From Takakia lepidozioides (lineage: Eukaryota; Plantae; Bryophyta): DNA of 64,000 nucleotides. Below the pieces are notes generated by a model. That model was not told where the DNA came from. It ran no database searches and saw only the letters and a list, made by a program, of their open reading frames with translations. Both the position numbers and the translations under genes were made by a program. Location of the stretch: the NCBI GenBank assembly GCA_030704615.1, contig CM060733.1:56544001-56608000 (forward strand). Reading direction: 5' to 3'. Shown piece after piece: positions 1,852 to 40,241 of this stretch (within the stretch, counting starts at the first letter, position 1; each line of letters begins with the position of its first letter).

Positions 1852-3171
1852 TCATACTGAAATTCTGATATTTGGTGAAAAGGAAAACCTAGTTTCAAAA
1901 ATGTCCTTCATGTCATAGAAGTTGCCTTTGATAGGCCTCTCCCATACTCCACTAGAAATATCATACACTGCCACTCGCATATCATATGCATAAGTGACCA
2001 CATAGATCCGCATACCATCAGCACCACTGCCGTATATTGCCCCCGTGGCCTGAAGAAAGTCTCTGTCTTGATACTGAGCTATTTCGATCCACTTGAGGGT
2101 GTTTGGCTCCAGCTCGAAGATTCCAACACTTGCAAGAGGTAAAATCCCACCTTCCAGGTGACCACCCACCATATAAATACGATCCCCACAAGCTACAACA
2201 TAAGGGTAGTTCTCAAAACCTTCAGGGAGGGGAAGAGGAGTTTCACTCCATACTCTCCTATGAACATTGAATAGCACAACTCTATATGAGCCAGTGGTCG
2301 AGTTACGAGCCACACAGTACAACCACCCTTTGCAATATGCACCAATCTTCAGAGCAAAGTCAGGGGGTAATTTGCCAGCCACCTTCCACGAGTTTGAGGC
2401 TGAGTCATAGACTTCAGTGCTCCTGTAACCATCCTCAGATTCCTTGTAGTTTGCATTGCCTGCAAGAATGATGGTGTATGAATTTGTCAGTTCATCCACC
2501 AACATGTGGGTTACGACTGGGGTGCTTGAATTCCAACTCAATGGAGGTAGCTCCTTCCACCGTTGCGTCATAGGGTTGCATACGAGGATGCGACGTTGCG
2601 TCATAGATACTAGGATACGACGGACTTCCAATGCTCCGAAACACAAAAGCCCCCCATGTGCTGCTATCAAATTCCAGGCCCAATTTCTGGCCGCGGTAGG
2701 AAAAGAGAGAGAGGGCATGCCAATCCATTTCTCATCTACGAGATCATATGTCGACCACACCAGAGAGGATGTGGCACCCTTCCAGCCGAGACGAGGCGAA
2801 TAGTAGCGACCCCAGGATATTGGAGACTCCGCCGAAAACTTCTTGAATTGGTTGCAGTGGATCAAAGAATCCCACCTCCTACATACGCTGCGAACTCGAT
2901 AGACGTAAGGGAAAGGAAGATATGAAACCACACGCTCCAGTAAGTCAGATGGCAGGGTACCCCACAAGGAGGTCTCTACAGGCAAAGGCCTGGAGATGAC
3001 ATCCAGCCTGCCCATGGCTGTCTCAGAACTCTCGATACATGCACAGTCCCCTGGACTGATCACAGCACACTCATCATCCACACTCGTTGCAGCTGGTGTA
3101 CTGCAGAGAGGCTTCATATCTTCCCCCCGACATTCGTCGATGTGGTATCCCTCACTCGATGCGGCTTCCAT
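1852..3171 (-). CDS. F-box/kelch-repeat protein
   Basis: F-box LPSDLLERVVSYLP...RSVCRRW is followed by kelch-like blades (HGGLLC, VCNPMTQRWKELPP, TEVYDSASNSW, IYMVGG); intact 439-aa ORF. Confidence 0.9.
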   Translation of the reverse strand: MEAASSEGYHIDECRGEDMKPLCSTPAATSVDDECAVISPGDCACIESSETAMGRLDVISRPLPVETSLWGTLPSDLLERVVSYLPFPYVYRVRSVCRRWDSLIHCNQFKKFSAESPISWGRYYSPRLGWKGATSSLVWSTYDLVDEKWIGMPSLSFPTAARNWAWNLIAAHGGLLCFGALEVRRILVSMTQRRILVCNPMTQRWKELPPLSWNSSTPVVTHMLVDELTNSYTIILAGNANYKESEDGYRSTEVYDSASNSWKVAGKLPPDFALKIGAYCKGWLYCVARNSTTGSYRVVLFNVHRRVWSETPLPLPEGFENYPYVVACGDRIYMVGGHLEGGILPLASVGIFELEPNTLKWIEIAQYQDRDFLQATGAIYGSGADGMRIYVVTYAYDMRVAVYDISSGVWERPIKGNFYDMKDIFETRFSFSPNIRISV

Positions 3172-4359
3172 GATCCGTCTACAAATCTGCCATACGGTAA
3201 TCGATCCACAGATGCAGTACTAAGCAGGATGCCAACGAGGGTGATTGTAGCTATTGATAGGACACATTCACAGCTACACTGCTCAAAAATCGCTCTACAC
3301 AGAAATCCCCTCGCTGCCGCATTCATTGGCAGGCACACTCATACATGTCCATGGCACAGTCAAAGCTCGTTTTGTGATGCACTCCCATTTTCCCACATCC
3401 CAAATCCTTGATGACGGACGACAACAAAATGCCTAAAACCCACGCATTGTAAGGCTGCTTTCTACAGTCATGACACCCAACACGAGATGAAATGAAAAGC
3501 AAAGGGGCTCACCACCACCTTCTCCTCGCGCTCTCAACCCTACTCGCCCATCCCTGAAAAAGGACTGCAATGATGATGTTCAGGAGACGAGATCCGCAAC
3601 CCCTTCAACAAGCTCTCAGACACAGACGAGCACAGACTGAAGCAAGCCCAGAATCCTAAACGCCCCAACTCGATCGCTCCCAGTAGCAAGAACTAACCGC
3701 AAGCGAGATTAGACCTCAAAACGCTCGCAACCTGGGCAATTCAGCCATGAATGCATCCCACTGCGAGATCCACAGAGGAGCAGACACGTTTGCGAGATTT
3801 GAGTAAGACTCCGAGTACTTGTAGTCCTGGCCAACCAAGCTGCAGTGCGAGTGGATAAATATAGAAACCATACAAGCTTGTCAGCGCAAACAACTCCCTC
3901 CTCTACCTCACCGTCCTAAGACTTATAAGCTCACCAAAAGCTTCCACATCTCCCGCACCACATCCCCAGCACTTCCGCTGACTGTGAAACACATCCACGT
4001 GAGAGCCCTCAGACCTCCGTCAGCCCCACATCAGCCTCAACCCTAAAAGGTATTCTCTCTCTCCTCTCCTGGCCCCATTCGCATCATGTCGAGTGCTGCA
4101 GTGCACACGAAGCACGATGGTGGCTGCATGTTTCTTCAGACTCTGCGATCGTCACTCTGCCGCCATGCTTCTCTTACAATTCTTCTGTTTTGCTCTGCAA
4201 GATTGCCCGTCCAGGATGTGCCCTACTTCCCTCCCTTTCTCATTCCTTCTCAACAATCTGCACGACCACACTCCATCCGGACTGCCATTTTGTACCTAAG
4301 TATTGCAGTGGATTTTTTTCGGATTTTGCTTGCTGCTTTCTCAAGAATTCCAAGAATCT

Positions 4360-7004: not shown

Positions 7005-7505
7005 TTTTTTTTATGTTTTTTTTTTTTATGTTTTTTTAAAGGGATGAGAGGACCAGAAAATTTATTAAAAAGGGAAAAAAATTAAACCCTTACAATTGCC
7101 ATGAGGCTTAACACACGGGACCGTGTTGGAGATTCCAACGATCAGTGAACAGGGTAGAAAATAGACCTGACTACGCATGCAGCCCTGGTAGACCCATCTA
7201 TTATTGGTTGCAAGAATTGCCCATAGTGCAGAGAGCTAATTTGGGATTAGTTCATAGCAGTGAAAAACTCCATGAAAGAGAGGTGCCTATTGTAGAGGGA
7301 ACCGAACGGAACGACAAACAGTAAGAGCACAGGCCAGAACGTCCAAGGAGCGAAACTCTGAAGATGTCTATCTGAGGAAGATCAACTTAGATTTAGATCC
7401 CCTCTTTATGTGCTTCCAGTTAATATCTCTCGAGTCCAGATCAGGGGAGGCTGAAGACGGTGCCCCATCGGTGTTTCCAAAGTTCAGGTATGGAGTTTGC
7501 CCATG
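7005..7505 (-). mobile_element. L1-like LINE 3' end (last ORF2 codons, 3' UTR, poly(A) tail)
   Basis: The minus strand ends AATAAATTTTCTGGTCCTCTCATCCCTTT followed by an A-rich tail (7005-7037). It appears to continue the ORF2 fragment at 19760-20040 across an inversion junction. Confidence 0.6.
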
Positions 7506-8454
7506 TACAACGGCCAAGCTTTTCCTCAAGCATGTCTACAGAATCCATGACTTGCCATCAAATATTGTGTCTGATCGGGGACCTCAATTCATGTCAAGTT
7601 TTTGGAAGGGACTATTTGAAGTTCTACGGGTACAAATCAACCTCTCTTCAACCAATCATCCTCAAACAGATGGACAAATCGAGAGGGTAAATCAAGTTAC
7701 TATTGGAACAATACCTTTGTTGTACAATTAACTATCATCAGGATGATTGGGTAGACCTCTTGCCTCTGGCCGAGTTTGCGTATAACAACATATATCATGC
7801 ATTGCTTGGACACACGCCTTTCTTTGCAAATTATGGGCGACACCCGAGGTTCGATACTCTCGCGTTCGGAAAAACAAACAACCCTGCTGCTGTAAGTCTT
7901 GCAGAACGATTGATTAACATTCAGACTTAGGACCTCAAAAAACGATTGAAAGAGGCCAAGACCGTTATAAAGATCTAGCTGACCGTCACCGCGCACCACA
8001 CCCAGCCTATAAAATTGGAGATCGCGTCTGGTTACTTCGTCGAGATTTACAATCAAGATGGCCTTCAAAGAAACTGGATTATCGACGACTCGAGCTATTC
8101 ACCGTCATTGCCCAGGTAAATCCAGTTGCTTTTCGGCTACAACTCCCAAGCTCTATGAAAGTCCATCCAGTATTTCATGTATTGATTCTTGAACCATTTT
8201 ATGAATCTATCATTCTTGGAAGACATGTTCAACCACCTCCACCAATCGAGATTGATGGCGAAGAAGAATTTGAGGTCGAAGCAATCCTAGACTCTCGACT
8301 ATGTCATGGACGCTTGGAATATTTGGTCCATTGGCGTGGGTATCATGTCAGTGAACGAACGTTGGAACCATCATCCAATATCACTAATGCATCCCAGAAA
8401 GTTCAAGAATTCCATCACCGACACCCCTATAAACCTCGAGCCACGCGTCGATGA
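7506..8454 (+). mobile_element. Ty3/gypsy chromovirus 3' half: integrase core, GPY/F region and chromodomain (frameshifted)
   Basis: IVSDRGPQFMS, HPQTDGQIERVNQ, LPLAEFAYNN, VHPVFHV and chromodomain EFEVEAILDSR...YLVHWRGY. Confidence 0.92.
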
Positions 8455-10412
8455 ATTATTAGACCGTCCAACATTAATAGCCGTCAAAACTTGAAGATGA
8501 AGCCACCGCCTTTGGCGCATAATAAGAAGGAGAGAGCACCAAACAAATAGACATCTTGAGGTGGTGGAGTTGTCACTAACAGACATTACCATGGCATCAC
8601 AAGAACCAGAAGAACTTTCATTTGCTCAACTAGATTAATGGTGTTACGCATCAGTAGCAACGTCAGAATATGTTATGGAGATGCAAGCACAAACAGAAGA
8701 AGATGATAATGTTGTTCCAATTGGTGAAAGTGAGACTCAAAACGATAGTATTGCGAATGATCATAATACACTGATAGAGTCAGATCCAGATTACATTCCA
8801 GCTGGCGTTGAAGGGGCCAATCCATTTGGTGAAAGAACAGAGATGAACCTTGTGGATGGATTTCATTATACTACGAATGGACGACGGTTTTGACAAGACC
8901 TACATCTTCCAGTTACTGAATCGGAGGTGGAACGTTATGGCACACAAGCAGGGATGCGATGGATACAAACGGTACATGACCAACTTACATTAATACATGA
9001 GCCGTTTTAAGTCCTCATGAATGTTACTCCTCATCCATGTCATACATCTGTTTGGGAAGTGGGGATTGTTACCCTTGATCAACCAATATCCAGCGGTTCA
9101 CATTTATCATTGTTTTCCCATTAGCTCCCTTTCCCGTGCTATGTTGAGATCGGGGAGAGGTTCCCATGCTTGAAATAGCGAGTTGTCGCGTTGTTCTGAG
9201 AGTCGTCTGCTGGCGAGATCCTCCAGCAAGATAAGCATATTTTCCTGCATTTGCTAGTCAAATTAACGTATGTGACGTGCAGTCTGCATTGTCTTCTGAG
9301 CAATGCCGACAGATGATCCATCAATTTCTGGGGGTCGCCCCAAAACAATAAAAACCCTCCGACTTCCTTGAAGACAGCTAGAGGATCCGATGTAGGGATG
9401 ATGGCAAGATAATTGAAGTACTTCGATCATTTGTCCGGCCATGACTAGATTCACTATGTCTGATCATGTTGATGCTTTCAAGATTATGCATGAAATGGCC
9501 CAGAACTCTCTACGTACGCATATTCCGTGAAATCCTAGGTAGGCCTCATGCTAACTACTTTGAGAATCCTCATCCATGACGATGTACCGTGATATTAATG
9601 AAGCCGTCACAAAAAAGACACATGTCCATTTTATGTTTGCACACGCCAACAACCCAAAACAGCCGCGTAAAGGAACAGCTGTCCCAATTAGGTTACGCCA
9701 TTTTCACTGAAAACATACATTCATGTATCGGACACACAAGAGGGAATCCGACGGTTCCAGGGACACTCCCAAAACGACGGAACCGCGTAAGAAAGCGAGT
9801 TTGTTCATCTTTCTTGTTTCTGCACGCAGAGGAAGAGAGGTAGTCAAGCTGGAGAGGGTTCCTTGTTCGGTTCGGAAGAGAAGGAAGTCATTGTATTTTA
9901 CATCGCTTAGAGAGAGGCTGAGATCAAGAGTGTAAATGACGAGGCGTCGCATACAAGATGGTGCAGCGCTTAGGCAACATGTGAACTTGGAGACATGTCA
10001 AGCAGAAGAGCATGTGGGAAGTGAGAGTGAGGTCGCCGCAGTCGTAGCGACGGCTGGAGCAGTGAGCGTAGGTAACCAGACAGTGCCAGCCGAGTTCATG
10101 CCCGAAGACAAGAGAACAGGGGGAGGAGCAGAGGACGCCATACAGGGAGGAAGTCTCCAAACCCTACATCATACAGAATTGGTGAGCACTCCATATCCAC
10201 ATACTACTGTTTTCATTAGTCTTGATGTTTTCCCTTCCATGTGGGATTCAATAACATGTATCTTGTGTTCAGACCGATGAAAAATGGAAGAGGAAAGCAG
10301 AAGAGGGCGATCCGAGCGATGCAGCCATGAAGCCGAAGAAGGCGAAGGGATCCGTAAGTTGTCTCACACGCACTTCTTTTTCTTTACTGATGGTCCCCAG
10401 ATGTGAGAAAAA

Positions 10413-11515
10413 CGATGATCGGTGGCGATCATCGCTTTACATAATAATATAGTTGGTGTTGTAGTTCAGCAGATTCTGGAAGGCAGGCAGGCAGGAAAAT
10501 ATACGTTTCACGGCGAAAGTGATGATCGGTGCCGACCATCACCTTCGCCATTGCTTTATTTAAGCATAGAATGCCAATTTCATGGTGATGCAAGAGTGTC
10601 AGGGAACTTAAGTCGCATCTTGCAATGACGTAGAAGCTATGATCGGTAGCGATCATCGCTTTAAGGTCCATTCCCTTCTTGTTCAAACCAGTTTGGAAAT
10701 GGCGTGGTCGTTCAGGAAAGTGATGATCGGTGCCGACCATCACATTCAGACCTCATGGTTTGTGCATCCCACGGCAGTTACATTGTGATGGTCGGTACAG
10801 ATCATCACTTTCTGTAATGACTGGATATTACCCCAAAATCCAAAATCGCAATGCAACCCTTTGTAGAATGAAATGCTTTAGGTTGAAAAATGTTCATCCC
10901 ACTTCTTCAGATCTGGAATTGCAGTAACAGAAAAGCGAGCTTCCAAGTCCATTTCTTTGCTCTAAATCTCATACAATGAAATGCAAAATTCTGTTGGAAA
11001 GTGATGGTCGGTGCCGACCATCACATTCAGACCTCATGGATTGTGCTTCCCAAGGTAGTCTGATTGTGATGATCGGTACCGATCATCACTTTTTGAACTA
11101 ATTGGGCACTACACCAGAATCCAAAAGAGGGGACCAACCCTTTGCATACTGTAAAGTTTTAGGATGTAAGAGGTCTAGATAATTCATAGGAGAAATCGCA
11201 GTGACACAAAAGCGATGATCTGTGGCTGTCATCGCTTCCAGGTCCATTCCTTCGCTAAAAAGCTCAGTGAGTGAAAGAAGGGATTCTATAAAAGAGTGAT
11301 GATCGGTGCCGACCATCACATTCAGACCTCATGGGTGTGTGCATCCCAGTGCTGTCTTCTTGTGATGATCGGTACCGATCATCGCTTGCATCATCCTGAT
11401 GGTCGGCACCAATCATCGCAGTCTAGTGAGAACTGAGTCAACGTGCATTGGGAAACCAACTAAATTTTCCATTCATTTGTTAGAAGGCAAAGTGATGGTC
11501 GGTACCGATCATCAC
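10413..11515. repeat. Intronic array of 12 copies of the 24-bp palindrome GTGATGATCGGTACCGATCATCAC, partly within ~280-295-bp tandem units
   Basis: Copies start at about 10413, 10519, 10636, 10720, 10785, 11001, 11066 (perfect), 11212, 11296, 11362, 11396 and 11492; the higher-order unit recurs at 10720, 11001 and 11296. Confidence 0.93.
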
Positions 11516-13427
11516 TGTTTAAAAATGTATGTTTCCAGAACACCAGTTGAATGTTGCTCTTGTGGGTCTTGGGTATGCAGAAAAATGTAAAGTCTAAGCA
11601 GAGAGAAACAGAAGCAAAGGGCTCTGGAGAAGGGGACGACTCCACGAAGAGTTCTGAGTGCAGCGAAGACACAGACGAGCCTGAATTGCAATACCTTGAC
11701 AAGGTGAAAGAACTTATGTCATATCAAAAGATAAATTCCCAGGAGGTTATTAGGGACATAATCGTCTTTGAAGGACGTCTTGAAATCCCTCTCTGCCGGA
11801 TGATCTCCATGCCTGTTGTTCGTCCTCCGCTTTCGCATGACATTACCAAGTTGGAAACAGATTTCGTGCACGGGTACAGAATGGGTGCACAAGTTTTCTA
11901 CGTATACAAATGGTAACAACACAAAAGTGAGCCCAGAGATAACGGACAACTGGGATGATTGCTGGAAGGATGTGAATGACGAGTTCGAGGACTCCCTGCT
12001 ACTTGGACATAACACCCAGCAGTTCTGCAACCACATATTCTATGTCTGGGACGGGAACCAGCGTTTGCTAGCTTGGATGGGGTACATTGCGAAACACCAT
12101 TCAAAAGACAAAGACAAGCATTGTGCAATGGAGGCAATGGTTTTGGATCCTGGGAACGACATCGCGAGACTTCTGACAGCTATGCATGACGTGAACAAGT
12201 AGGACATCCTAAAAATCCCATTGCCTTTCAAATTGCATGTTGTGCACATTTCAAGTCCAATCGTAAAATATTTCTTACCTATGCAATGTGTATTCCCTGT
12301 TTGCAGATCGACAGAGAAATCACATGTTACTACGAGCTTGGTCCACACACTTTTCCGTATTCAGAGAATTGGTTTGATGAAGCTTGATGAGTTCCGCACA
12401 GTGCTAAATCCTGATGTAATCAAGAAGTGCGAAACATGAAGGGTTGCAGGGACCTGGTACTCGTTGACCCGAGAAGCATTTCTGGAGTACATGTATGCGG
12501 TATGGCCCAACCCACATCTTCCTGTCTTCTTCAAAACAAATTTGTAATCCTCTGTGTTCTAATCCAATCGTTGTTACATGCAGCAAGAACTAGCAGAGGC
12601 CGCTGAGACGGGGAAATTTGAGTACTACCGCACTACTGTAGAAGAGCTGAGGACTGCTAAAGGTGTTGGGGCAGCCATAAAGAAGGAGTACGAGATAAGG
12701 AGGACGAAGCTGATGTTCGCCTTCCTGAAGCAATTGAGAATAGTGGATCTCGGACTTGGGGAGGAGTTCCTTCTCCAAATCAAAGCCCACTACGAAAGCA
12801 TGTACATCCAGAGATGCAACAGGAGAAATTGCACAGGCTGGCTCTCTCCATGGCCGACCCCCAGACAAAAGTTAGATGGCTTGAGATTTGAAACTCGGAT
12901 CAAACGGTGAAGGATCTGAATCAGTTCCCAAAAAGCACAATCCAGCCTGGCACAAAGGTCGAGGGAATAAGTGACATTGTTTTTTATCAGTGGCTTCACA
13001 AGGCCACATTTTGGAGTCAGGTATTTGTGGATTCAAGTGCCTATTGTATATGAATTATCCTATGGCTTTGTCGTGCGCAATTCTGATAGATGTTCCCTTT
13101 GCAGCTGGAGAAACGCGCCATTCTTGTCCTGGAGCAGAATTTGAAGGACTTGAATATTTCGATGGTCTCACCACCATAGATGACCTTGGAGGCGTACATT
13201 AGAAAGTGGAAAGGTCTCACGTGGCGGTACTGTTTCTTCCGCGAGTTCTCCAAGGATGGTAACATATTGAGGTCAAACAATTTCGACAGTCAAGTTGGAG
13301 GGGAGTGGGCGATGATGCGTGTTGTGTACAGGTGCAGTACCTCAAGCCTATCCATCACATTCTTTGAAATTTTGTCATGCCTTATTGAGAAAAGCTTAAT
13401 ATTTTTTTTCTGCTACAAAGCAGTTTG

Positions 13428-13683
13428 GTGATGGTCGGTACCGATCATCACTTCCACTACTCTGATCTTCTCCCGTCAAATGAATGAATACTGCAGATCA
13501 TGTCCATGTTTCCATTCTTAATCCTACCTCTATTAACATAGGCAGTTTGTTTCTGATGAATGAAGTGATGATCGGTGCTGATCATCAGATTTCCCAGTTG
13601 TACAGTGTAGATAATCATAAGGATTTGCCAACCCATGTTGCATTCTCTCTCATGTGAAAGTGATGATCGCCACCGATCATCAC
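13428..13683. repeat. Three further copies of the 24-bp palindrome in intron 13332-13738
   Basis: Copies at 13428-13451, 13565-13588 and 13660-13683. Confidence 0.9.
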
Positions 13684-14651
13684 TTTCTACTGCTTTTGAT
13701 ATCTTGTTTTGGGGGTGGTGTTTGTTTGAGCGTTCGCAGGTACACTAAATATGTGTTGATGGAAGGAAAACACCTGAGTGGAATCCCAGATTACCTGGAC
13801 ATGTGGTTCGACCCTACCATCGATCCCACCATGTACACAGCTGGTATCTTGAGGGACTGGAGTCCTGCCCATTTCAGGGACTGTGGATGGTACCTCGACT
13901 GCCCTCCAGAGCACACGACATTTCAAGAGCAGCAAATGAAGTATTTGAACAACCATGCGGAGATGCTGGCACCTTTGAACGACGAAGAGTACTAGAGGAA
14001 CATAGCTTCATTGGCCGGCAAGGAACCAGACGCACAGGCAACTCCCTAGAAAGGCAGGAAGGGGGGTCGCTAGGTGAAAGACAAGGATCCAAAGGCTTCG
14101 GAGGTTGATTTCTTTTCTTAATCTGGTAAGAATCTTTCTCTTCACATGGGACATTCGAAATTGTCAATGCCAATGTAGATGTTGGTTTCTGTTGGGACCC
14201 TCATTTTTCTTTGTATTTAAATTGGACCTGTATGCTGCAGGTGAGCACTGGTCCCTCATTCGTATGCGGTGTTCAAAAAACCTTTGCCGCTGACATGGTC
14301 ATCCTTGACATCCAGATGGCCAGCCTCTCCCCGACGTTCCTCCAAAGGGAAAGACTCCATCCTGGAACAGATTCGATGAGAACTACTGGAGTTGGGTATT
14401 CGGGTTCTGCAATAATTTCCTTTCAGATGCAGGAATGCTTTTGCTCTTCCAGTCATGTGACAAAGATAGTCGTAGGGACAGGCATCATACCTGAAGTCGT
14501 CTGGGTTTGAAATTCTGAGGACATGGAATTGTGTGAACATCCTCTACCTTCTGAAAGGTGGTTGCCCTGGATAGCTGGTATGGTACCACCCTCCTCCGTA
14601 CTGTTCCCAATGTCTTCTTGTTATTTCTGCTGGCTTGCTCTACCACCATCT

Positions 14652-14675
14652 GTGATGATCGGCACCGATCATCAC
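14652..14675. repeat. Single copy of the 24-bp palindrome in the intron starting at 14558
   Basis: GTGATGATCGGCACCGATCATCAC. Confidence 0.88.
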
Positions 14676-16029
14676 AAATACATTCCATTGTAGTTTTCAT
14701 TTGCAGTCCATGTTTTGTTCCTTCCTGCGCCGGACTTCCTCCAATATTTCCATGTCTCACCCCTACCTTGCATATTTGCCAAACGAGGATGTTTGAGGCA
14801 ATCTGCCTGAGGAGGATTCGCATCTCAAAAACACCATCCTCCATCCGCAACTTTGAAATTTCCGACCAGGGGTGTTTCATCAACCCCCCCTATGAACCGC
14901 ATGTGGATGACATGCTCTACAATTTCATGCACTCCAGTCAGATAGCCAAAAGACCAGATGGGTTTCCGTGGAGAGGTGCAAGGGAGAGAACCCCAACGTT
15001 CATGCAGATGCTTTTGGAGTCATGCAACCACCATTCTGCAAGGGTGGTCGACCTCACACTATCCACAGGTTCGTTGGTTCAATACTGTTCCCATTTTCGA
15101 GGTCTTCCAGTTTGCATCCGATACAACCTTCTTGAGGCTTTCTGTCTTGGCAGGTGTGATTTATCGTGCTTGCAAGGTTGGCGGGAGAAGCCTTTTTGGC
15201 ATGGAGGGCGACACCGAACTATTCAAGAGTGTCCTCCTCCCTCTTGTGTCTGGCTCTACGTCTGGCACACAGACTGAACAAATTCAAATCAGAAATGATG
15301 AGGATACTGAGGATAAGCAGATCGACAACGACTTTTCATGTGAGTAAGTGTGCCATGGAATTGTCATTCCAGTTTGGGTGCTTGTTCAATTTCGCAGACA
15401 TCAAATTTGCAGTAATAACTTTTATCATGCTGTGACTTGCGGGAACGGCAACGATGGAACTTCAGGAGAAACCCCCATTTGTGGCGAGACTGTTTTTGAT
15501 AGTTCCCTTTCCACTTTTATGCTTCCTGTGTATGCCGAAGCAATGACACTTCAAATGGCCGAGGCTCTATCCCCTGACTTCTTATTGCTCGATCGCAGGT
15601 GTATCCATCGTAGATCCGGAGTTCTTAAATTCTTGGACTTGGATGTAGAGGACGCGATGATACATTGTACTGACTTTGAGTCTGAACTTTGCAATGTCAA
15701 TCTTCATGAATCCATCGCACAAACCCCTCACACTCATGTCATATCCATTGTGTATTCATCTACTGTGTATTCATGCATCCTCCATTCAAGAATGTTTTCA
15801 ATTATTCAACATCCATTGTACATTCATCCATTGTACTCTCATCCATCCCACATTCATCCATCTGCTTGCATTGTTCCCACACATCCATCTATTTCTCATC
15901 CACTCTACATTCATCCATCCTGCATTCATCTGTTGCTTTCAGGTGGGAATGACCACGTCCTTTTATTATTTCGTCCAACTTGTTTCCGCGGTTGAGGGTG
16001 CTCTTCCACGGAAATACACTCTGCTTCTT

Positions 16030-16150
16030 ACTTGGCGCGCGTTTAAGCTCGATGACGTGGAGTGAGCCTGGTGATGTGGCGTTCACTCAAGGTGATGTGG
16101 CGTGAGCGCTGTTGCGCTCACGCCGAGGCATACCTGGAAAACCTCTAGGG
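16030..16150 (+). other. Candidate transposon terminus (GC-rich motifs and a perfect 11-bp hairpin)
   Basis: GGTGATGTGGCGT occurs twice; hairpin GGCGTGAGCGC-TGTT-GCGCTCACGCC at 16099-16124; then GGAAAACCTC and CTAG (16145-16148). No matching left end was found. Confidence 0.4.
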
Positions 16151-16174
16151 GAATTGGGAAAAAAAATGACGTTT

Positions 16175-16813
16175 TCAAAGTACACTTTTAGCGAATACGG
16201 TGTTTGCCATTCTGCATCTTGTCGAATTGATTAAGGTTGAAAGTGAATCCCACAAACGCTTCATCTTATCATCACAAAACCCTAAGAACTTTTTCCAAGC
16301 CTCGATGTCTTTCGTGAGTCCTTGTAAAGTCCATTTCCCATACATAGCTGGAGCATGTACCAAGACCTCTTTCTGCTCTTTGTGTTCTTCCTCGTCAGAA
16401 ATATCTAGCGCACGTATCAATTTCCTCTCAGCACCACCATTGCTTTCCAAAGTCTGGATTCTTCGAAGAGCATCCCTGTTCGTCCATTCTGCAAACACAG
16501 CCTAGTTCACAACTCTATTTTTCTTCTCACAATCAATGCCCCGTGCAATAGTTTTGATAACTAGGTGGGAAGCTGGAACAATTGTGCGTTGGTGTGTTAT
16601 CATCCAAATCTGATCTACACGAGCTATCAACCGTGAATCTGCAAGGTTGAAGAGATAGCTACAGCCATTCTTATTCACTAAAGGCCCAAACAACTTGGCT
16701 ACCTCATTTTCGGTGCAGTCTCTATCTATTTTCAACCGCCTTGGAGAAACTCCATCATTGCAAAGACCGTAAGTCCCCAAGCATATGGTCCATCTCGACA
16801 TAAATGTAAACAT
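16175..16813 (-). pseudogene. TE-associated hypothetical protein fragment with an in-frame TAG (probably from TGG)
   Basis: ORFs 16502-16813 and 16175-16498 are in one frame, separated by ...RVVN*AVFAEW; the pattern resembles the hAT cargo ORF at 32673-32999. Confidence 0.45.
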
Positions 16814-16869
16814 TGCAGATCTCGAATTGCAAAGCTCTTGGGAGCTTTATCTGATTGGCCTATACAACC

Positions 16870-19759: not shown

Positions 19760-20040
19760 ATAAAATTCTTGGGCTTCCATCCCCATTTAAAAATAAATGT
19801 TCCGCTCGGCAACACTGTGGCAAATCTGGAAGGCTCGTTGCAGATGGACATTAAACAATGCTTCCTCCTCCTGTACAAAAATCCTTGCTTGTGTTTTCTA
19901 TGATGTTACTATTGCAGCTAAGTTGGCCCGGCAAAAACTATGTACAGAAGCAGACAGGAAACCAGAACGAAAAGATTCCCTCCTCGCCTCCTTTAGAGCA
20001 TCTTGGGGAAGAGGAGGAATCATTTGTTGCATCATTGATA
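19760..20040 (+). mobile_element. L1-like LINE ORF2 C-terminal fragment
   Basis: LWQIWKARCRWTLN matches the plant L1 W.IWK.R motif; it breaks off at the inversion junction near 20040. Confidence 0.65.
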
Positions 20041-20041
20041 C

Positions 20042-23000
20042 GGACTGCTGACAGACTTGAGGGTTGGGATAAAATGTGCCATTTTTGCTAGGCGGTCGAC
20101 CACGACAAGAATAGTGTCAAAAGATTCAGAGCAGGGGAGATCTGTGATGAAGTCCATAGATAATGATGACCATGGGCCCTCGGGAATAGACAACGGCTGC
20201 AGCAGACCATATAGACAGTGATGTGGTGCTTTTGCTCGGGTACATGTATCACAAGTGTGGATGAATTCCTTTACCAACTTCCACATTTGTGGCCACCAAA
20301 AATCCCTTGAGATAAGCTCGGATGGTTTTAGTTATACCAAAATGACCAGCTGATGGAAGGTTGTGTCGTGCTTGAAGAACATGCAAGCGAAGTGGTCCTG
20401 GGTGGTACATAAATGAGTCCCAATAGTGGATAAGGCATTCTGACTCCTGAAATGCGCAATCTTCGTTCGTTCTTTGGCGTAGACGTCGTCTTATATCCTT
20501 CGCAAAATGATCATTTTTTAGACTTCCGCGAATCTTTGCAAGAAAACTCGTATCAAGAGGAATTTTACTTTCTATTGACATGAGACGCAATTGTTCTGGT
20601 TTCAGAATGATGGACTTCTGTTGATCGAATGCAGCACCTCCTTGTTTAGGAGCCAGATATGATCGGCGTGACAGTGCATCTGGCTTCCCCTGTTGGCTTC
20701 CTGGACGATAAACAATGATGAATTCAAAGTGAGATAGAAACATACCCCATCTGGCTTGTCGACGATTAAGTACTAGAGCATTCATGAAATATTCGAGATT
20801 CTTATGGTCGGTGTGAACTATGACCGTATGCCGAGCTCTTTCAAGAAAATGTCGTCATTCTTCGAAAGCATCGATGATTGCTAAAAGCTCTTTATCGTGG
20901 ATTTCATAGTTGATTTCTGCAGCCGAAAACTTCCTCGAATGGAATCCCGCAGGATGCAGTCGTCCGTCGTCTAAAATGGGAGCTGTAGTAAAAACGTTCT
21001 TCAATCTCTGGAAGGTTTTTGAAGCATTGTCGTCCCACTTGAATTTATCCTTTCCTATAAATCGTGTTAGGGGTGCGGCAACTTTTGAATAGTCCTTGAT
21101 GAAGATCCGATAAAAGTTTGCAAACCCCAAGAAACATTGCACGTCCCGGACCGAAGAAGGTGTATGCCAATCGACAATGGTTTGGACTTCCTTAGGGTCC
21201 ATTGAGATTCCATTATCGGAGATGATGTAGCCCAAGAATTCAACCTTCGACTGGTGGAAAAGACATTTTTCTAGCTTTGCATATAGTCTTTTCTCTCGTA
21301 ATTTGTCGAGGACGAGACGGATGTATTTTTCATGGTCTTCGGAATTTTTGGAGAATATCAAGATATCATCTAAGTAGATGACTACAAAGTCGTCAAGAAA
21401 TTCTCCAAATATGTCGTTCATCATATGCTAAAAAATTGTCGGAGCATTTGTAGACCAAATGGCATGACGTTGTATTCAAAATAACCATACCTTGTACGGA
21501 ACGTTGTTTTCCATTCGTTGCCTTCTTTAATTCGTACAAGGTTGTAGATACCCCTCAAATCGATATTTGTGAAGATTGTGGATTGACCAAGTTGTTCTAG
21601 AAGCCTTGAAATCAGCGGTAACGAACATCGATTTTTTATCGTGATTTTGTTGAGACCTCGATAATCCACGCACATTCGTAGAGTTCCATCTTTCTTTTTT
21701 ACAAAGAGTATTGGTGCGTCGGCAGGTGATTTAGAATGTCGTATGAAGTTTTTCGAAAGATTTTCGTCAATGTAGCTGCGTAGCTCCGTCAATTCATTTT
21801 GGGAAAGGTTGTAGATGGGTCCAAATGGTGGTTGAGCTCCTTCTTGTAGTTCGATCGCACAGTCATAGGGTCGATGCTGTGACAACATGTTAGCGTTGTT
21901 CTTTTCGAACACGTCTTTAAAATCATGATACTGTGGCGGTAGTGTTTATGTGATTTTGTCTTCCATATTTTTTGCAGGCGTCGCATAGATCATGAAAGAT
22001 GTACCTGTCTTCGTAGCTTGTAGAAATGCTCTTGCCCCCAATGAGTTTTGGTCGAATGAATCTCTGTCTTTGACGTTGTTTAGTCCTTGAGAATATTTTC
22101 CCTGTAGGCCAGTCGATATCTGGATTGTGTAAGTTAAGCCACGACCGCCCCAAGATTATTGGGTTCGAAGGTGATTTGATGATGTTGAGCACAATATTTG
22201 ACACAAATTCTCCGTGGTGTACTTCAAGAGGTTGAGTCTCCTGAGTCACGTCTCCTGAAGCGAGGGTACATCCGTCGATAACTTCACAAGTTGCAGAGTT
22301 TTCTTTCTTCATCGGCTCCAAATATTCTTGTTGAGCAAATTCTTTGTTGATGAAACATGGTATAGCACCACTGTCTACTAAAGCTTCTATATGTATTACG
22401 CGTCCTGTGATATGTATATCTATAGGGACCATGAAACTTGATACAGGGTCTGGGGGTAGGAATAGACCCTTTGTCTTCCTTTGATTCGTATTGCCCAGCC
22501 GCAAGGTCCCTATTGGGGCTGGACAACCTTGTTTTCCGCCTGGTCTGCTCCGTTGGTAGTAGCTATGCTTCGAACCTTGTACGTTCTTTTGTTGTGACAC
22601 TTGGATGCAATATGTCCAGGTTCTCTGCAATATAAACAAAGTCCTAGCAGTCGGCGACGCTGTTTTTCTTTTGGCGTGAGAGGTTTGAATCGCACAACAT
22701 CAATCTGCATAGGTTCGTATTCTCTCGTTGAACTGCTGGGTGTCGTTTGTGGAGTAGGAGGTAGGGTCGTATTGGGCGTCCAAAGGATCCGAGTCTTTCT
22801 TGTCGTCTTTCATATAGTTGATTGTCGCAGGCAATGGCTTGGCTAGTGATCTCCCTCAAAGTGGCCACCTTCAGCATGGTAAGCATGAGATCTTTTACAT
22901 CGTCTCGAAGTCCCCAACGAAATTGACTGATGTAGTTGTTTTCATTCCAATTTACATCGCATGCTAACTGTCAAAATTTTGTAGCATAGGTTGATGCAAG

Positions 23001-23340
23001 GCGAGCTCCTTGTCGTAGAGTTCGAATTTTTGTATCGGCAACTCTTTCACGATCAACTTCATCAAACGTTGCATTAAACTCCGCAAGAAAACTTTCAAAA
23101 TCATAAAGCAATGGTGCAATGGTGCAAACCATGACAAGGCGGTTCCTGAAAATAAGGTCCCTATCAATCCAACCTGGGAGGCACTGTCAGGGTACCGGTC
23201 ATGTTGCAAACGAATGAAGAGCCATACTTGTTGAACAAACCTTCGAAATTTTGAGCTTGTTCCATCAAACTTTTCAGGCATGCTGACATTGGGTTCTTTT
23301 GTTCGTTGTTGTACTGTTGCTAAGGAAGTTTCTCGGGAAG
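20042..23340 (-). mobile_element. Ty3/gypsy chromovirus (Tcn1-like) gag-pol 5' half, degenerate
   Basis: Gag MPEKFDG, zinc knuckle CLYCREPGHIASKC, protease ALVDSGA, RT ([12 protein letters not shown]), RNase H (YEIHDKELLAI), integrase HHCC ([10 protein letters not shown]...CDTC) and SMDFITDLP, truncated at AHFIPTLKSVSSP. Confidence 0.95.
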
Positions 23341-23499
23341 TTTCCTAACCGCTTATAGACGAAGTTTCTTAAGAAGTTTCTTTATTTTGCAGGAAGTTTC
23401 TTGGGGAGTATCCTAGCTAGCTTAGGGATCTTCTAGAAGGGTCTAGAAAGTTATAGAATGAAGTTTCTAGAAGCTTCTAAGAAGGTCGCAGATATATGG

Positions 23500-24953: not shown

Positions 24954-25159
24954 CCTAGTTATCATTCCTAACTTGACGTGGCACTGACACGTCCGAAGTG
25001 CGTCACGTCACGTCGAATCCGGACGTTTATCCATGCAATTTTTTTTTACATTTGACTTTTACGATTTACTTCTACACTTTGTAATGACATGGCAGCCACG
25101 GTGTAAAACAGACGTGGCCAATTATTAAAATTTATTAATTCTTAAAAAAAAATATGTCC

Positions 25160-25895
25160 ACCTATATTGGCGGTCGCATATAATTTATGATTTTAAAGAT
25201 AAAAGCGACCGCCCATATTGGCGGTCGCTTGTAATTTAATATTTTGTTAAATTAAGCGACCGCTTATAATAAGCGACCGCCGGTAATTTATTTATTTTAA
25301 AATGAAGCGACCGCCCATATTGGCGGTCGCTTGTATTGTATTATATTTTAAAATAAGCGACCGCCTATATTGGCGGTCGGTTAAAATTTATTATGTTTTA
25401 AATGAAGCGACCGCCCAGATTGACGGTCGCTCGCACTTTATTATATTATTATTATTATATCCTTGATATATTCTGTAAAAATACAGCGACCACCATGTGG
25501 CGGTCGCTTATTTTTATTTGTGTTCTTAAATAAAGCGACCGCCGTTTGGCGGTCGCTTCTTCAGTTAATTTTTGAAAAATGCAGCGACCGCCATTTTGCG
25601 GTCGTCGCTATTTTTGTTAATAAAGAATACAGCGACCACCATTTGGCGGCGGTCGCTCGATTTGATTTTGATTCTTAAATTAATCGACCACCGTTTGGCG
25701 GTCGCTTACTTAATATTTTTTTTTAAATGAAGCGACCGCCATTTAGCGGCGGTCGCTTATTTAATATTTTTTAAAAAAAAACAGCGACTGCCATGTGGCG
25801 GTCGTTCTTCTTGTTTTTATAAATATAGCGACCGCCATGCGGTGGTCGCGTGTTTTTTTTTTTCTTAGAAATCGAGGGACTCGCCGTGTGGCGTT
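25160..25895. repeat. Palindrome array A: AAGCGACCGCC-N4-6-GGCGGTCGCTT in AT-rich spacers
   Basis: More than a dozen copies; lies upstream of the kinase gene. Confidence 0.92.
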
Positions 25896-26481
25896 TTTTT
25901 TTTAATTTTTTAATTATGAAGCGGCGCCTGACTAGCCACGTGGTGAGGTGCCACGAGTCAGGAAAAACTAAACAAATGCGATGGAGGGAGGTGGTTTTGA
26001 ACCCTTGACCTCTCCCATGTGGGTGCGCGGGGCGAGGTGCGACTGGCCAATCGTGCCGCGCTGACACATGGTGAGGCGCCACTGGCCTGTCGCTCATTTT
26101 CAAGCATAATGTCATTTTTTTTTTTTTGGGGGGGGGGGGCTGATGGGCGCCTCTATAAACCATTCCCCCCTCCTTTTCTGATCACTTTTGCCCCTCTCGT
26201 GGTGTGGTTCCTTGGCATCCTATAGTCATTTCGGACTTCGTTGCTTGGTACTGCCAACGGGAGGTGCAAAGGCGATTATTTAGGGGGGGGAGAGAGGTTT
26301 TGTCAGTTTTCTATTGGTCAGTCCCACACACTTGTTCACGGTTCAATCATCGTATCACCATTTTGCCGTTTTCGGATCTCCGGCGGCCTGTTTTTTTGCA
26401 GAAACTACAAAGACACCATCCACACGCGTTCATTGCCGTTTTCTGAGGTTTTGGACCCTGTAGTGGGCAAAGGTTTATACA

Positions 26482-27935
26482 ATGTCGGGGGTTGTGAATT
26501 CAAGTTCTGGGGCGGGGTCGTCTGGGGGTCGGAGGAAGAGAAAACGTGCCCACGAGCGGGATAGCCAGATCAACAAGCCAGACTACCCGGGACTGGATGC
26601 CTTGGATAGGGTGAAAGAAGTGGTAGTGGATTATTTCAAGGGTAGGGACATGATGAGGCTGGAGAGTGCTTATGTCAGGCATGGATGGGAGGGGTTTCAG
26701 ATTTTCCAGCAAAATATGGAGAGAAAAATGACAAACGCTTTGGCGGGGGCTAAGTGGACGACAAACAGGGACAAACCAAAGTTCAATCGGTGGATCCAAA
26801 GCAAGGCGAAAGACGCCACATGGAATTTGAGGTAGCTAATGAAGACATGGAAGGGTAGAGCAACCGAGGGTCGAGTGCCCTCCGCCAAAGCTGAGTTAAT
26901 GCGGCGTGTTGAGTATTGGGCTTACTCGGCAAGTCAGAATTCACATCGCCGGACTAGGGTTGTCCCTTGGAAGGTGGGGTCATCGGGCGGGGGAGGCACA
27001 ACTGGTCTTTATTACCTGAACTCTACTGCGAATGTGATAGAGATTGGCCCTCACAAAGAAGGAGGGTATGCTAAGGTCCGTCAGTGTAGGATTGTTGGCG
27101 ATTCTAGAATACCGGAGCGTTGGGAGCTAGCGGGAAAAAAACCCAAGTCCAAAAATCCAGAAAAGGCGTTGAAACAACATAACGACGAGTGTTTGGCAGT
27201 GAAGTTCCAACATCCGGGTGTTATCTCATATTTTGCTGTGAATGCACGTGAGGTAGAGGGTTACACTCGTTGGTGGAATGGGGGAACAATACGCGACATG
27301 ATGAACCTTGACAGAAAATGGGACAACGATTCGGACAACAGGGTGATTTTGGAACAAAGGGGAACGGAAGCAAAGTTCCAGGAATGCGATCGCTTGCTTC
27401 GTTTCCGGAAAGTGCGCAGTAAACTTGCATGGGCACTAGTGTGCATCATGGATGTTGTCCACAAAAATGGTGTCCTGCACAATGACTTGTCCCCCGACAA
27501 CATCTTGTTGCATTTTCTAGATGACACCGAGGAGATCAAGATTGGGGTGTGTGATTGGGGCTTAGCCACCCCATTGGGCATACGCAAAGTCTCGTCGTAC
27601 CAGTTTGAAAACCAAGACAAGCTGGACCGAGAATTCGCGAAAAGATGGTGGGTGAAAAAAGATATTGCATCGGTTTTCAATGCGAATGTCACCCCCTCCT
27701 CCCAGGACATGACGTCGGAGGCATTTGCCTTGGGAAGATAGCCGTACGAATAAATGACGGCGCTCATTATGATCAAAGTATGTTTGAGGACCAATTTACG
27801 GGAGGTTGTTGGCATTCAATGCTACAAAGGTTGTACGACAACAACAAGAATGAGAGAGTCACATTAGCCCATATAGTACTTCGGTTCATGGGCAAGTCAT
27901 TCAGTTGGCCTGAAGACGTATATAGGACGGAGTAG
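26482..27935 (+). pseudogene. Intronless protein kinase with a basic NLS-like N-terminus (hAT cargo); one in-frame stop and one frameshift
   Basis: EGGYAKV Gly-loop, LAGK lysine, HNDLSPDN catalytic loop (27478-27501), DWG (27553-27561). The 26482 and 26839 ORFs are in frame across TAG 26833-26835; a frameshift near 27733 restores SEAFALGKIAVRI; N-terminal RRKRKR. Confidence 0.88.
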
Positions 27936-28017: not shown

Positions 28018-29566
28018 TAAATAAAGTCCCATTGTAAATACTACATTGTATATGCTCGACCTTGGCACTTGTTATCGCAACATAAATGGTTTGTGTACTG
28101 GCTCATTGTTTGTATTTGTAATGTTCCAAGGTTTCGGATAGAGTTATGAGAAAACGATGTATTAGTTCCGTAAGAGTTAGACAACAAACGTCTCACATCT
28201 CATTCAACTGTGCGACACTACCATGAGAGGCATGGATCGGAAAGTAATAGGTGCACATGCGACCTCCGAACATTCGATACTAGATCCAGCGAATGGTTTA
28301 CTTGAACGTCTGAAGGTCGCATGTACACCTATTACTTTTTTATCCGTGTCACTCATGGTAGTGTCGACATTTGAATGAGATATGAAACGTTTGTTGTCTA
28401 ACTCCTATGGAGCCAATATATCATTTTCACAGTACCCTGTTAGAAAACATTGAAATATTCGAAGTTACAAACAGTGCCACAATACATGGCCGGTTTTGTT
28501 GAAATGACATCTGTGAGGTTCGAGCGTATGCAATTTATTATTTACAACGGAACTTTATTTACTCGGGGGACCGGTACTTTTGCTGGAGTGCAACTGATGG
28601 TGCAAGTTCTCTATTGATTAGAGCTGTCACAACCAATGTCAACAATCATATTTACGGTAAGGTGTTTCATGCTATTGTTGTTTCTCTGGCTGAATTCTGT
28701 AGTACTCTTTTTGCTATTCCCATGCCAACGTCCTCTGAGACTGTCATGTTCAAACGAATGTATCAGCCACCCCGGCCAACTTGTAGGCTGCAGCCACGGC
28801 CCACCTTAAATTGAATGAATTGGAGATTTTGTGCGAAGTTCCTAGTTTCATGTCCGTGGTGGCTGATACGGAATTCGGAATATGGTAGTCGCAGTGGACC
28901 TGATGTTGTTGGCATGGGAGTAGCAAAATGATTCCTAAATAATTCAGCTACATGAACATCGGCAGTATGACACACCTTGCAGTACATATAATTCTTGAGA
29001 TTGTTTGCACGGATTATTTGTGTTTGTGCTTTCAAGTGACAAACATTCCCGCCATGGTACAGAAGAGGTGGATTGGCCACATTAAACGATTGATGTGATA
29101 CCATTTCACAAATGTATCACATCGTACTTGTGAAAATGTATCACATGAACCGTTCTATGTGGCCTACGAGAGTCTTCGATGGGTACGAGATCAATGTGGC
29201 CTACGAGATCTGCTTCCACCAACAAACATGTGATCATTTCAGAAGCGCTTGAACTTTGAAGCGACGATGGGCAAGGTTCTTCATCCAGATGTTCAACATG
29301 CTGAGGTCTTCTGTAATGTCTCTTGCTTCGTAATGAGTGCTTCCCCAACTCTTATTTTCCAATGTTGATTTTCTATCTGGAACATATCCACAGATGCGTA
29401 TATAAAGGCTTAAAAATCCAAATGACCATCAAAACTGGAAGCTGGGGATGAGGCTTATAAAAGTGGAGATGGTCATTTGCTTATTTAAAGATTTCTGCAC
29501 ACATGTGTGGATCTGTTCCAGGTGGAGAATATCAACATATTGGATAAAGTGGACATAGAGAAGCAC
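28018..29566. other. Cluster of four consecutive long imperfect inverted repeats (candidate hairpin-RNA/pri-miRNA locus)
   Basis: Foldbacks at 28018-28561 (loop ~28278-28301), 28630-29007, 29075-29164 and 29337-29566; arms aligned by eye against their reverse complements. Confidence 0.8.
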
Positions 29567-29639
29567 CGTAACTACAAAAAGAGCTTCAAAGGGCATACTA
29601 TGTAACAGGTCCCAGTATAACCGAAGACGAAACCCCATT

Positions 29640-31008: not shown

Positions 31009-31461
31009 TTTTGTGCTTTGAGAACTTTGTGGGTATGTTTGTAGAAAGATCATAGATTTTGCGAAATGATTATGCAATACGCAGGGACCAGACGAAATTT
31101 GTTTGGAAGACGACCATTCGTAACTCGTTATAACTTATTGGTTAACATCAATTTTTCTTGTTCTCCAGCTTTCGGAGTTCATTGCAAATACCCACATACA
31201 CGTCATGGCCAAATATGACACCATTGTAAATTTGTTTACAGGGTGAATTACTTCTTCCCCATCACACGAGTGTAAATGTGAAGAAAACGCTCTCATGCAA
31301 TTGAAATTGGCAGGTGCTGCACATGTGCATTGTGTATTAACAAAATTGGTGATATACAAAATTGGCGAAATGCCATCACTGTGTTTTCCAACAATATTCA
31401 AGGTACAACAAAAATGCACATTGTATATGTACTTCGTTGCCAGTCATTAAAAGCTTAGTCG

Positions 31462-33159: not shown

Positions 33160-33460
33160 AAACGAGTTTGAGTATGTGTCAAAATAGTTCCTAAAAGCTG
33201 ATTTTGTAGAATAAAATGATCCTGGAAGCCAGATGAGGGCCTATGGGAGCATTCTGCAACGACTTCACAGAAATCGCGGCAAAAAAAACCCCCTACCCAA
33301 CCAATGGCCTCCTTCTCCACGAGACTACGTGTCGTGGAATAATAAAATGCCACGCACACAGAAGTTTGTGTGGGAGAGAAGTGAGGGGAGAATGAGCCTC
33401 CCTTGGCTTATATGCCCCCCCCCCCCTATTCCTCGGGCCACGTGCAGGGCGAACCTTCTA

Positions 33461-34983: not shown

Positions 34984-35242
34984 GCATTAAAATAAAAATG
35001 AATGCAGAGTTGGAAGCATGACACAATTGTTCTCTATTCCACAAGCAAATCACCGAACACAAACATGAGCAAGTGACGGTGCATTTGGCCGACATTTTGA
35101 CTGGTATACACATGGGCAACATCTTTTATTTTCCAACACATACACAACAGCAATACAAATACTCATAGTGACAATGATCACACTGTAATTACTTCACTAC
35201 AGAAATATAAACATGTCCACTAAAATGTGCTGATGCATGCCT

Positions 35243-40042: not shown

Positions 40043-40241
40043 TTCATTTTGTTAATTTTCAAAATGTATTTGTCACCGTCACCGTGTCGGCAACGTGGTT
40101 GCTTAAGTAGTAATATTTTACCTGGTACTATTTTTACCAGAATATTCCTCGAACCTGACGTGACGGAGGTCCCGTCAACATTAGGTCTGACGTGACCTGA
40201 CGCTGACGGACGGACGTGACGCCGATAACCGGGAATCGTAG

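Follow-up and report, generated by a model that had tools for sequence, protein, structure and literature searches.

What does a gene that joins a ParB-like domain to a DNA methyltransferase-like domain do in the genome of the bryophyte Takakia lepidozioides, and what do its many introns contain? The question is raised by a 64,000-nucleotide stretch of contig CM060733.1 (assembly GCA_030704615.1, positions 56,544,001 to 56,608,000; hereafter the window, counted from its first letter), in which a first-pass annotation made from the letters alone had described such a gene on the forward strand, supposing it to be an old, horizontally acquired and probably transposon-borne module. The answer favoured here, with a probability of about 45%, is that the window contains a dead copy of a transposon accessory gene, whose protein would load at palindromes within its own introns, spread from them and counter or tune the silencing of the element. 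This proposal builds on a fusion gene of which the window copy is broken and highly repeated, on two folds recognised in models of homologous proteins, and on palindromes which occupy introns only and combine a conserved core with clade-specific arms.

One gene fuses a ParB/sulfiredoxin (Srx)-fold domain to a beta-class amino-methyltransferase (MTase) domain. Single gene models containing both domains have been found in the moss Ceratodon purpureus (proteins P0158 and P0181) and in Adiantum ferns (P0154, P0155, P0104 and P0160), the species named among 30 looked-up homologs, and these models confirm the fusion that had been proposed from the window. The second half of the ParB-like exon matches 196 proteins at E≤0.001, with 44 of 157 stored proteins ending at the same intron position, and P0158 (1,147 residues) aligns with the window from 11,686 to 15,296 at 28-42% per segment. 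The same exon order, with shared intron positions, is common to 80 metagenome loci (60 distinct after the removal of 20 near-duplicates). L006 and L081 appear intact, and many divergent and degenerate copies occur per host. The two Ceratodon proteins are 96% identical, with locus tags on chromosomes 1 and 4, and their divergence amounts to 1.1% in the ParB domain, 2.0% in the middle region, 1.4% in the MTase domain and 12.7% in the N-terminus. A first word-based homolog search with the window ParB read-through had found nothing; viral contigs contained no relative of the ParB exon and prokaryotic genomes a single ParB-domain match, with no genuine prokaryotic homolog among them. That match, L081 (CADCWO010000058.1, labelled as a cyanobacterial metagenome-assembled genome), was considered as a bacterial homolog and rejected: it is an intact-looking, intron-containing copy with GT-AG introns at plant positions and four palindromes, the arms of which are identical to those of L044, and it is probably plant contamination of the assembled genome. 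With no viral or prokaryotic relative of that domain to hand, the case for a bacterial or phage origin is made from fold and architecture only, and the horizontal acquisition initially supposed has gained no sequence homolog in its favour. No description of this family was found in the open-access literature; the supplements of PMC4738411 and 10.1101/2025.10.10.680097 might list members.

For the ParB-like domain, an AlphaFold model of the exon homolog P0001 (predicted local distance difference test score, pLDDT, 88) was compared with known structures. All 32 matches listed by Foldseek are of ParB/Srx type (two by label), the best being Noc (E 5.7e-3), and all eight rows with Z≥5 in a structural alignment are ParB/Srx proteins, led by KorB (Z 7.7, root-mean-square deviation 2.5, 90 aligned). 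Residues of ParB type recur in 50 selected homologs, namely R82 of a VR pair (36 of 40), G163 (48 of 50), H165 (46 of 50), R166 (44 of 50) and N210 (42 of 45); across the G-N-H-R stretch the conservation is 48, 50, 46 and 44 of 50, and [DE]GNHR is present in 74 of the 109 proteins matched by pattern out of the 157. A ParB/Srx fold with its nucleotide-binding motifs retained (Box I arginine, GxxR and distal asparagine) is predicted from the models and the alignment. In KorB, according to the available part of PMC11790492, R117A abolishes CTP binding and N146A abolishes hydrolysis, and the correspondence of the family asparagine with N146 is suggestive. None of the 50 ParB-exon homologs matches ParB_N or DUF3723 in Pfam (two match DndB weakly), and a profile of the domain returned chance hits only from PDB sequences.

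The ParB domain is followed by a helical region which is confidently predicted in a P0158 model of mean pLDDT 64, and which is a candidate for the DNA-recognition part. An Atlas search with residues 384-740 returned only leads under 0.9, and few rows were recovered for residues that would covary with the palindrome arms (seven for the best candidate helix). In a language-model search, residues 225-520 of P0158 resembled fungal DUF3723 (0.97, 190 of 256 features; 15 of 30 hits), a likeness obtained with no alignment and with no Pfam hit to PF12520 in P0158, suggesting that DUF3723 has a ParB-like N-terminus. No paper containing both terms, ParB and DUF3723, was found in the open-access literature. 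The same residues also resemble an unnamed basidiomycete set.

The MTase domain is more readily recognised. P0158 matches PF01555 (E 4.9e-7, 30.4 bits against a cut-off of 26.7) over 2-217 of 221 positions, and residues 843-1,124 of its model superimpose on M.BceJIV (8urk) with Z 16.1 and root-mean-square deviation 3.5 over 209 aligned residues. A structure search gave M1.HpyAVI at E 4.3e-8, the top structural matches comprising M.BceJIV, MboIIA, M1.HpyAVI, CcrM and bdelloid N4CMT (8s9n, Z 12.8), the latter reportedly a eukaryotic amino-methyltransferase of bacterial origin, and a profile of the domain found DpnA among PDB sequences at E 0.003. These models indicate a permuted beta-class fold in which motif IV precedes motifs X/I. 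The fold searches proposed for the first-pass annotation, carried out on homologs, have thus returned both expected folds, the ParB one with modest scores. Canonical motif IV reads (D/N/S)PP(Y/F/W) and motif I FxGxG. The family has DTPF, DLPF, DVPF, DLPT, DFPI, DIPE or DVPE at motif IV, with DI/D across a break in the window copy. Motif I is ASTG or LSTG where the copy is of moss type and AGTG or AGCG where it comes from a fern; the canonical (D/N/S)PP(Y/F/W) occurs in no copy. As judged from these sequences, the altered motifs initially seen in the window are a family trait and not a peculiarity of that copy, and methylation by the family is therefore doubtful. A search of annotated phages with the L006 exon that encodes motif IV found no real match.

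An active enzyme would nonetheless offer another explanation of the locus: the intact protein could place N4-methylcytosine or N6-methyladenine in or around the palindromes, blocking 5-methylcytosine of the host or marking the element, with the ParB domain as its loader or activator. The completeness of the fold and of the PF01555 match suits such an enzyme, as do the D-x-P of motif IV, kept in L006, L081 and all 13 pattern-matched long proteins, the fourth residue where it is aromatic (DTPF, DLPF and DVPF), the GAGTG of fern motif I, the CG and CCG contained in the palindrome core, and an MTase region conserved like the ParB domain between the two Ceratodon proteins. However, no copy has the canonical motif, T, I, E or D takes the fourth position in many intact-looking copies, and the motif I of moss-type copies is also atypical; the palindrome core of old copies has decayed from C to T, a mark of ordinary 5-methylcytosine, and inactive MTase domains borne by transposons are known, DIRS1 being the case given in the consulted sections of PMC4738411. 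An active methylase is considered quite unlikely.

In the window, every peptide quoted by the first-pass annotation can be found on the + strand, within 9,724-15,347: IPLCR..VVRP at about 11,785, FYVWDGNQRLLAW at about 12,040, AMHDVN at 12,180-12,196, DMVILDI/DG spanning the change of frame at 14,312-14,315, and RERTPTFMQMLLES..VVDLTLST|G..ACKVGGRSLFGMEGD within 14,980-15,215. The estimate of about nine introns also stands, with nine well supported and two doubtful (the first, which is short, and another at 15,340); seven of the nine lie within the region homologous to other copies, and those at 10,182-10,272 and 10,354-11,580 have GT..AG ends. The gene and the element around it can be laid out as follows.

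8,970-16,204, no strand: high-copy element, approximate extent (left end about 8,950-9,010; right end 16,174 or 16,204).
9,724-10,353, + strand: N-terminal low-complexity exons, placed by splice signals only, without homology.
About 9,724-9,794, + strand: doubtful exon, placed by splice signals.
9,830-10,181, + strand: broken exon, placed by splice signals.
10,273-10,353, + strand: exon with a basic KRK/KPKK stretch, placed by splice signals.
10,354-11,580, + strand: large intron with 12 palindromes (starts 10,412-11,492), enlarged by internal duplications of about 280-400 nt.
11,581-12,198, + strand: exon encoding an acidic linker and the ParB/Srx-fold domain (IPLCR, VRP, DGNQR..AW, HDVN), its frame broken near 11,905.
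12,307-14,102, + strand: four exons (12,307-12,499; 12,584-13,020; 13,105-13,331; 13,740-14,102) encoding the helical middle region and a linker, with six stops and one frameshift.
13,332-13,739, + strand: intron with three palindromes (13,428, 13,565 and 13,660).
14,241-14,577, + strand: MTase exon with the motif IV region (DMVILDI../PSWN../GMLLLF), two frameshifts and one stop.
14,578-14,782, + strand: intron with one palindrome (14,652), its acceptor AA in the window copy.
14,783-15,339, + strand: two MTase exons (14,783-15,068; 15,154-15,339) with the motif X/I region WRGARE..VVDLTLSTG..ACKVGGRSLFGME.
15,466-15,700, + strand: possible further coding segment, a final exon or a separate open reading frame, conserved in other loci and in fern models.
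15,700-15,935, + strand: short repeats with CATCC, clustered towards the right end, with similar clusters in L035 and L046.
16,098-16,149, + strand: GC-rich hairpin with 12-bp arms and CTAG 21 nt later, a Helitron-like 3' feature not confirmed as a terminus.

The window copy is a pseudogene, with seven in-frame stops (12,437, 12,889, 13,177, 13,993, 14,047, 14,071 and 14,572), four frame switches (near 11,905, 12,796, 14,313 and 14,476) and one lost acceptor, 14,781-82 reading AA instead of AG. A frame switch does exist at about 14,313, where a single deletion had been proposed, but it is one lesion among many. Three of the four frame-switch sites show indel differences in contigs of other copies, a comparison which covered one sample, sequenced as DNA in two runs, and a plant metagenome, and in which 12 of 125 indel rows were seen, 14,313 not being among these 12. 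The 'CE*' end at 15,347, originally taken as the end of the gene, reads through a T|GT donor-like site that is also present in L006 and L081, so that the 3' end is not firm. The segment at 15,466-15,700 is the top window match of a small profile, at the expected place and with a non-significant score (E 0.32), and the same profile matches L043, L066, L041 and L035 at E 4e-21 to 0.007. Among 11 pieces of the window gene, Pfam found no ParB or MTase family, the best match being GmrSD_N at E 0.2; because no piece reached either family alone, the domain calls rest on the homologs. One contig from a run guessed to be RNA covers 14,785-14,942 with 26 other letters and is neutral as to expression.

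The introns of this gene contain a feature that had passed unnoticed in the first-pass annotation, and which gives the clamp idea its candidate loading sites. When up to seven mismatches are allowed, the 64-kb window has 16 occurrences of a 24-bp palindrome, made of 11-bp half-sites GTGATG(A/G)TCGG around a 2-bp centre, all between 10,412 and 14,652; the sites are distributed as 12, 3 and 1 over three introns, and none of the 16 touches an exon. Thirteen matches lie within three mismatches, against 0.00 in 100 shuffles. Homologous loci have palindromes of their own, with differing arms around a common CGG-NN-CCG core, of which 35 were counted in 15 of the 60 distinct loci against 0.2 expected (seven loci with at least two). 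As the CGG core was chosen post hoc, all 64 self-complementary cores were ranked; CGG came first with 35 sites and CAA second with 18, which fits the deaminated form. When C-to-T decay was allowed for, a repeated palindrome family was found in 17 of the 34 loci with at least 800 nt upstream, compared with 1.8% of simulations. As in the window, the sites are placed about 380-1,950 nt upstream of the ParB match and not at element ends, and later introns of L018, L056 and L066 have further ones (nine at 51-nt spacing in the last). The intact-looking L006 contains no palindromes and was not counted as informative, because its contig begins 170 nt before the ParB match and leaves out the large intron. 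The arms follow the protein clades in a quick tree, which is descriptive only. Within a single gene, asymmetric cores can be found in either orientation and variants of the half-site are freely combined, which fits recognition of double-stranded DNA, and the core shows C-to-T decay in older copies. Viral contigs contained no exact palindrome.

The palindromes could also be unrelated to the fusion protein, serving as internal sites for the transposase of the element, forming hairpins in single-stranded DNA or pre-mRNA, or remaining as relics of tiny insertions, with the protein as cargo directed at another target. Such sites would have counterparts in the hairpin arrays that flank a hAT-type open reading frame elsewhere in the window and in the hairpin with CTAG at the end of the window copy, GNRA-type loops are possible for some cores (L004, L020), and half of the informative loci have no palindrome family. 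Their placement tells against it: the sites are clustered in the introns of the gene, even in short ones between the MTase exons, and lie kilobases away from both the transposase-like gene described below and the element ends. Also against it are A-C mismatched arm pairs that recur, a central dinucleotide that varies and is found in both orientations, and an Rfam search with 0 matches. This explanation is held to be unlikely.

The gene lies within a repeat. Summed contig depth, which is not to be equated with copy number, reaches 4,754-38,871 over 9,008-16,021, against 45-135 in low-copy flank bins (run X1), and this stretch of about 7 kb, some 100-fold deeper than its flanks, is thereby marked as a repeat with little inside it besides the fusion gene. 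Related loci share up to 13 kb, non-coding DNA included. Of 16 distinct loci that extend 2.4 kb or more upstream, eight, three of which supplied the queries for this count, have upstream fragments of one shared transposase-like gene on the opposite strand, always divergent; together with the depth, this neighbour supports the earlier supposition that the gene is borne by a transposable element. The transposase-like gene is absent from the window. By eye, a Cys/His domain can be made out in it, together with a DDE-like core and an end that resembles SWIM, the same layout, so judged, as that of Mutator-like (MULE) transposases, which consist of a WRKY-GCM1 domain, a DDE transposase and SWIM in the relevant part of PMC1702500. 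Among element classes, Mutator-like is the likeliest candidate. No inverted termini were seen around the window copy or in 11 long loci. Downstream of the fusion gene, a second shared open reading frame on the opposite strand (L035, 14,330-15,880; L056, 14,800-16,340; L066, 6,790-8,900; also L041 and L075), with no Pfam match, is possibly another accessory gene of the same elements.

Helitrons are recognised by a 3' hairpin with CTRR at the terminus, insertion between A and T, and a RepHel gene. In the window copy, the CTAG near the right end is followed by G, and flank contigs from two runs of one sample stop at 16,175 and not at 16,150, which is why a Helitron terminus is not confirmed; no RepHel-like neighbour was seen. 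The 3' feature is of importance to a further explanation, according to which the family is a domesticated gene of the host, a factor of chromatin or the germ line comparable to Marchantia DN4MT1, and the window contains a piece of it taken up and multiplied by a non-autonomous element, for example a Helitron. Many introns at conserved positions, annotated genes that are intact in both Ceratodon and Adiantum, and a window lacking a transposase would all agree with a host gene. Nevertheless, this account fits the data worst and is very improbable, considering the numerous divergent and degenerate copies per host, the long non-coding flanks shared together with a divergent transposase-like gene, and the assignment, by locus tag, of the two Ceratodon proteins to different chromosomes.

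In the accessory-gene reading favoured here, the intact product would be a ParB-fold, nucleotide-binding protein of seed-free plants, likely dimerising, and the element a Mutator-like DNA transposon of which the window copy may be a derivative without transposase. One subunit would read each 11-bp half-site, nucleoside triphosphate binding at R..G-N-H-R..N would close a sliding clamp, as in KorB, Noc and VirB, and the protein would spread from the candidate parS-like sites along its own element, the outcome being element-specific anti-silencing, as with VANC; the MTase domain would likely be a catalytically altered DNA-binding module. A ParB fold with its nucleotide-binding residues kept and element-specific palindromes in the same gene would be most simply linked by a loading-site relationship. 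The clamp is the least secure part, because ParB folds near DNA-modifying enzymes need not use CTP. The fuller proposition that moss and fern transposons carry a working ParB-parS-like system, in which a CTP-gated sliding clamp would load at co-diverging intronic palindromes and pull a methylase-fold domain along the element to escape host silencing, appears doubtful.

Several observations weigh against the favoured reading. The ParB-fold scores are modest, with no Foldseek match at E≤0.001 and a Z of 7.7 below the caution line of 8 set by the tool, and the match of the family asparagine to N146 is taken from the range ends of one structural alignment, two models differing by two residues. No helix-turn-helix, which the ParB-type clamps have along with a C-terminal dimerisation domain, was detected, in comparisons whose ParB matches end at residues 377-389 of the P0158 model and barely probe the middle region. 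Where a phage ParB activates a DNA-modifying enzyme, the CTP residues are dispensable, according to the portion of PMC13229309 that treats it, and the corresponding portion of 10.1101/2025.10.10.680097 describes methyltransferase-fused ParB folds that can bind ATP or show no detectable binding. The transposase-like neighbour has no Pfam or PDB match, its class having been read from motifs by eye. As regards the palindromes, the window sites were multiplied as the large intron duplicated internally, and so are not independent; the CGG core was defined after the data had been seen; 17 of the 34 informative loci lack a repeated family, and one of the 17 positives, L071, looks spurious; L001, L004 and L037 have palindromes with other cores; and the quick tree does not demonstrate co-evolution, since kin share arms. 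Finally, hairpin arrays also occur in other elements of the window.

Those arrays consist of GCGACCGCC-N5/6-GGCGGTCGC hairpin units at about 50-nt spacing (25,130-25,920; 33,460-35,000; 39,450-40,070) and are probably the subterminal repeats of one large or two related elements. Two of them flank a broken hAT-type open reading frame at 36,622-38,500 (Dimer_Tnp_hAT, E 3.4e-5), and two enclose a divergent, intronless protein-kinase open reading frame at 26,836-27,741 (+ strand; Pkinase, E 2.9e-8), which lies inside the repeat-bounded region and is possibly transposon cargo; 120-nt tandem units and inverted repeats extend beside it from 28,124 to 31,054. Low-copy open reading frame fragments at 16,175-16,846 and 31,925-33,035 (both - strand) are mutually similar by eye, with no Pfam match above the cut-off. 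An F-box/Kelch gene and, recognised by eye, two fragments of Ty3/gypsy-type long terminal repeat retrotransposons were also found (1,852-3,219, - strand; 7,276-8,454, + strand; 20,032-23,344, - strand), and 53,800-60,000 contains several duplicated and inverted gene fragments with stops, pentatricopeptide repeat-like by eye.

A family combining ParB residues, a methylase fold and matched palindromes makes a bacterial load-and-slide clamp testable on eukaryotic chromatin, and also bears on how transposons gain element-specific anti-silencing. If real, such a clamp would be the first of the ParB kind to work on the chromatin of a eukaryote. Intact genes in a laboratory moss, such as those for the intact Ceratodon proteins KAG0631975.1 and KAG0579660.1, together with many protein-site pairs differing in their arms, mean that specificity can be tested by swaps, and such pairs could be turned to site-directed epigenetic editing. 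For an unexplained Starship gene, the DUF3723 lead points to a function that can be tested and, if DUF3723 is related, the plant family would belong to a broader group of ParB-fold accessory proteins found in giant mobile elements of eukaryotes. Sulfiredoxin is given as the most common eukaryotic ParB-fold protein in excerpts of 10.1101/2025.10.10.680097, and land plants are credited with few N6A-methyltransferases in those of PMC4738411.

Among known systems, the domain order has its precedent in the phage and prophage fusions of ParB-N to N6_N4_Mtase, which the accessible parts of 10.1101/2025.10.10.680097 and PMC4738411 also place in a mobile-element context; the nearest profile is phrog_67 (E 5.6e-6). 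Unlike those fusions, as far as these sources go, the plant family is eukaryotic and intron-rich, has a helical middle region of about 350 residues and non-canonical motifs IV and I, bears candidate cognate palindromes inside the gene, and has a ParB domain for which viral and prokaryotic contigs yielded no relative by sequence. The eukaryotic cases covered by the accessible part of PMC4738411 are ParB-helix-turn-helix fusions, known there from chlorophytes and chytrids, and MTases of haptophytes that stem from ParB-terminase loci, and the plant architecture is not among these. Marchantia DN4MT1, like bdelloid N4CMT reportedly an amino-methyltransferase of bacterial origin, is a host gene with TSPPY, and ParB is unmentioned in the available text of 10.1101/2021.02.12.428880, whereas the plant family is repeat-borne, has a ParB domain and lacks SPPY. 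DUF3723 (PF12520), a conserved fungal Starship cargo gene of unknown function in the part of PMC9156397 devoted to it, is similarly an accessory gene of eukaryotic mobile elements, its likeness by language model being a lead.

The closest parallels in behaviour would be two. With the clamps of KorB-OB, VirB, Noc and ParB-parS, the family has in common a ParB fold, the conserved arginine, glycine and asparagine, and repeated palindromes on the same mobile element (PMC11790492 and PMC10653881, in their accessible sections); it differs in its longer sites, with 11-bp half-sites and a 2-bp spacer, and in the fused MTase, and is known here from sequence and models. VirB, as the latter source describes it in those sections, loads at a parS-like palindrome, spreads and relieves silencing, being an anti-silencer without ParA. 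VANC, the anti-silencing protein of the Mutator-like VANDAL elements, has short target motifs that have grown in number within the non-coding sequence, introns included, of the element that encodes it, according to the available portions of PMC5735166, and the plant family resembles it as an accessory transposon gene with family-specific motifs multiplied by duplication in a host element that is likely Mutator-like. The motifs of VANC are 8-9 nt long and the word 'palindrome' is absent from those portions, whereas the plant family has ParB and MTase folds. Domain order is thus known from the phage fusions and element-specific motifs from VANC, while the matched-site feature, of which no earlier description was found, is what the plant family appears to add to these systems.

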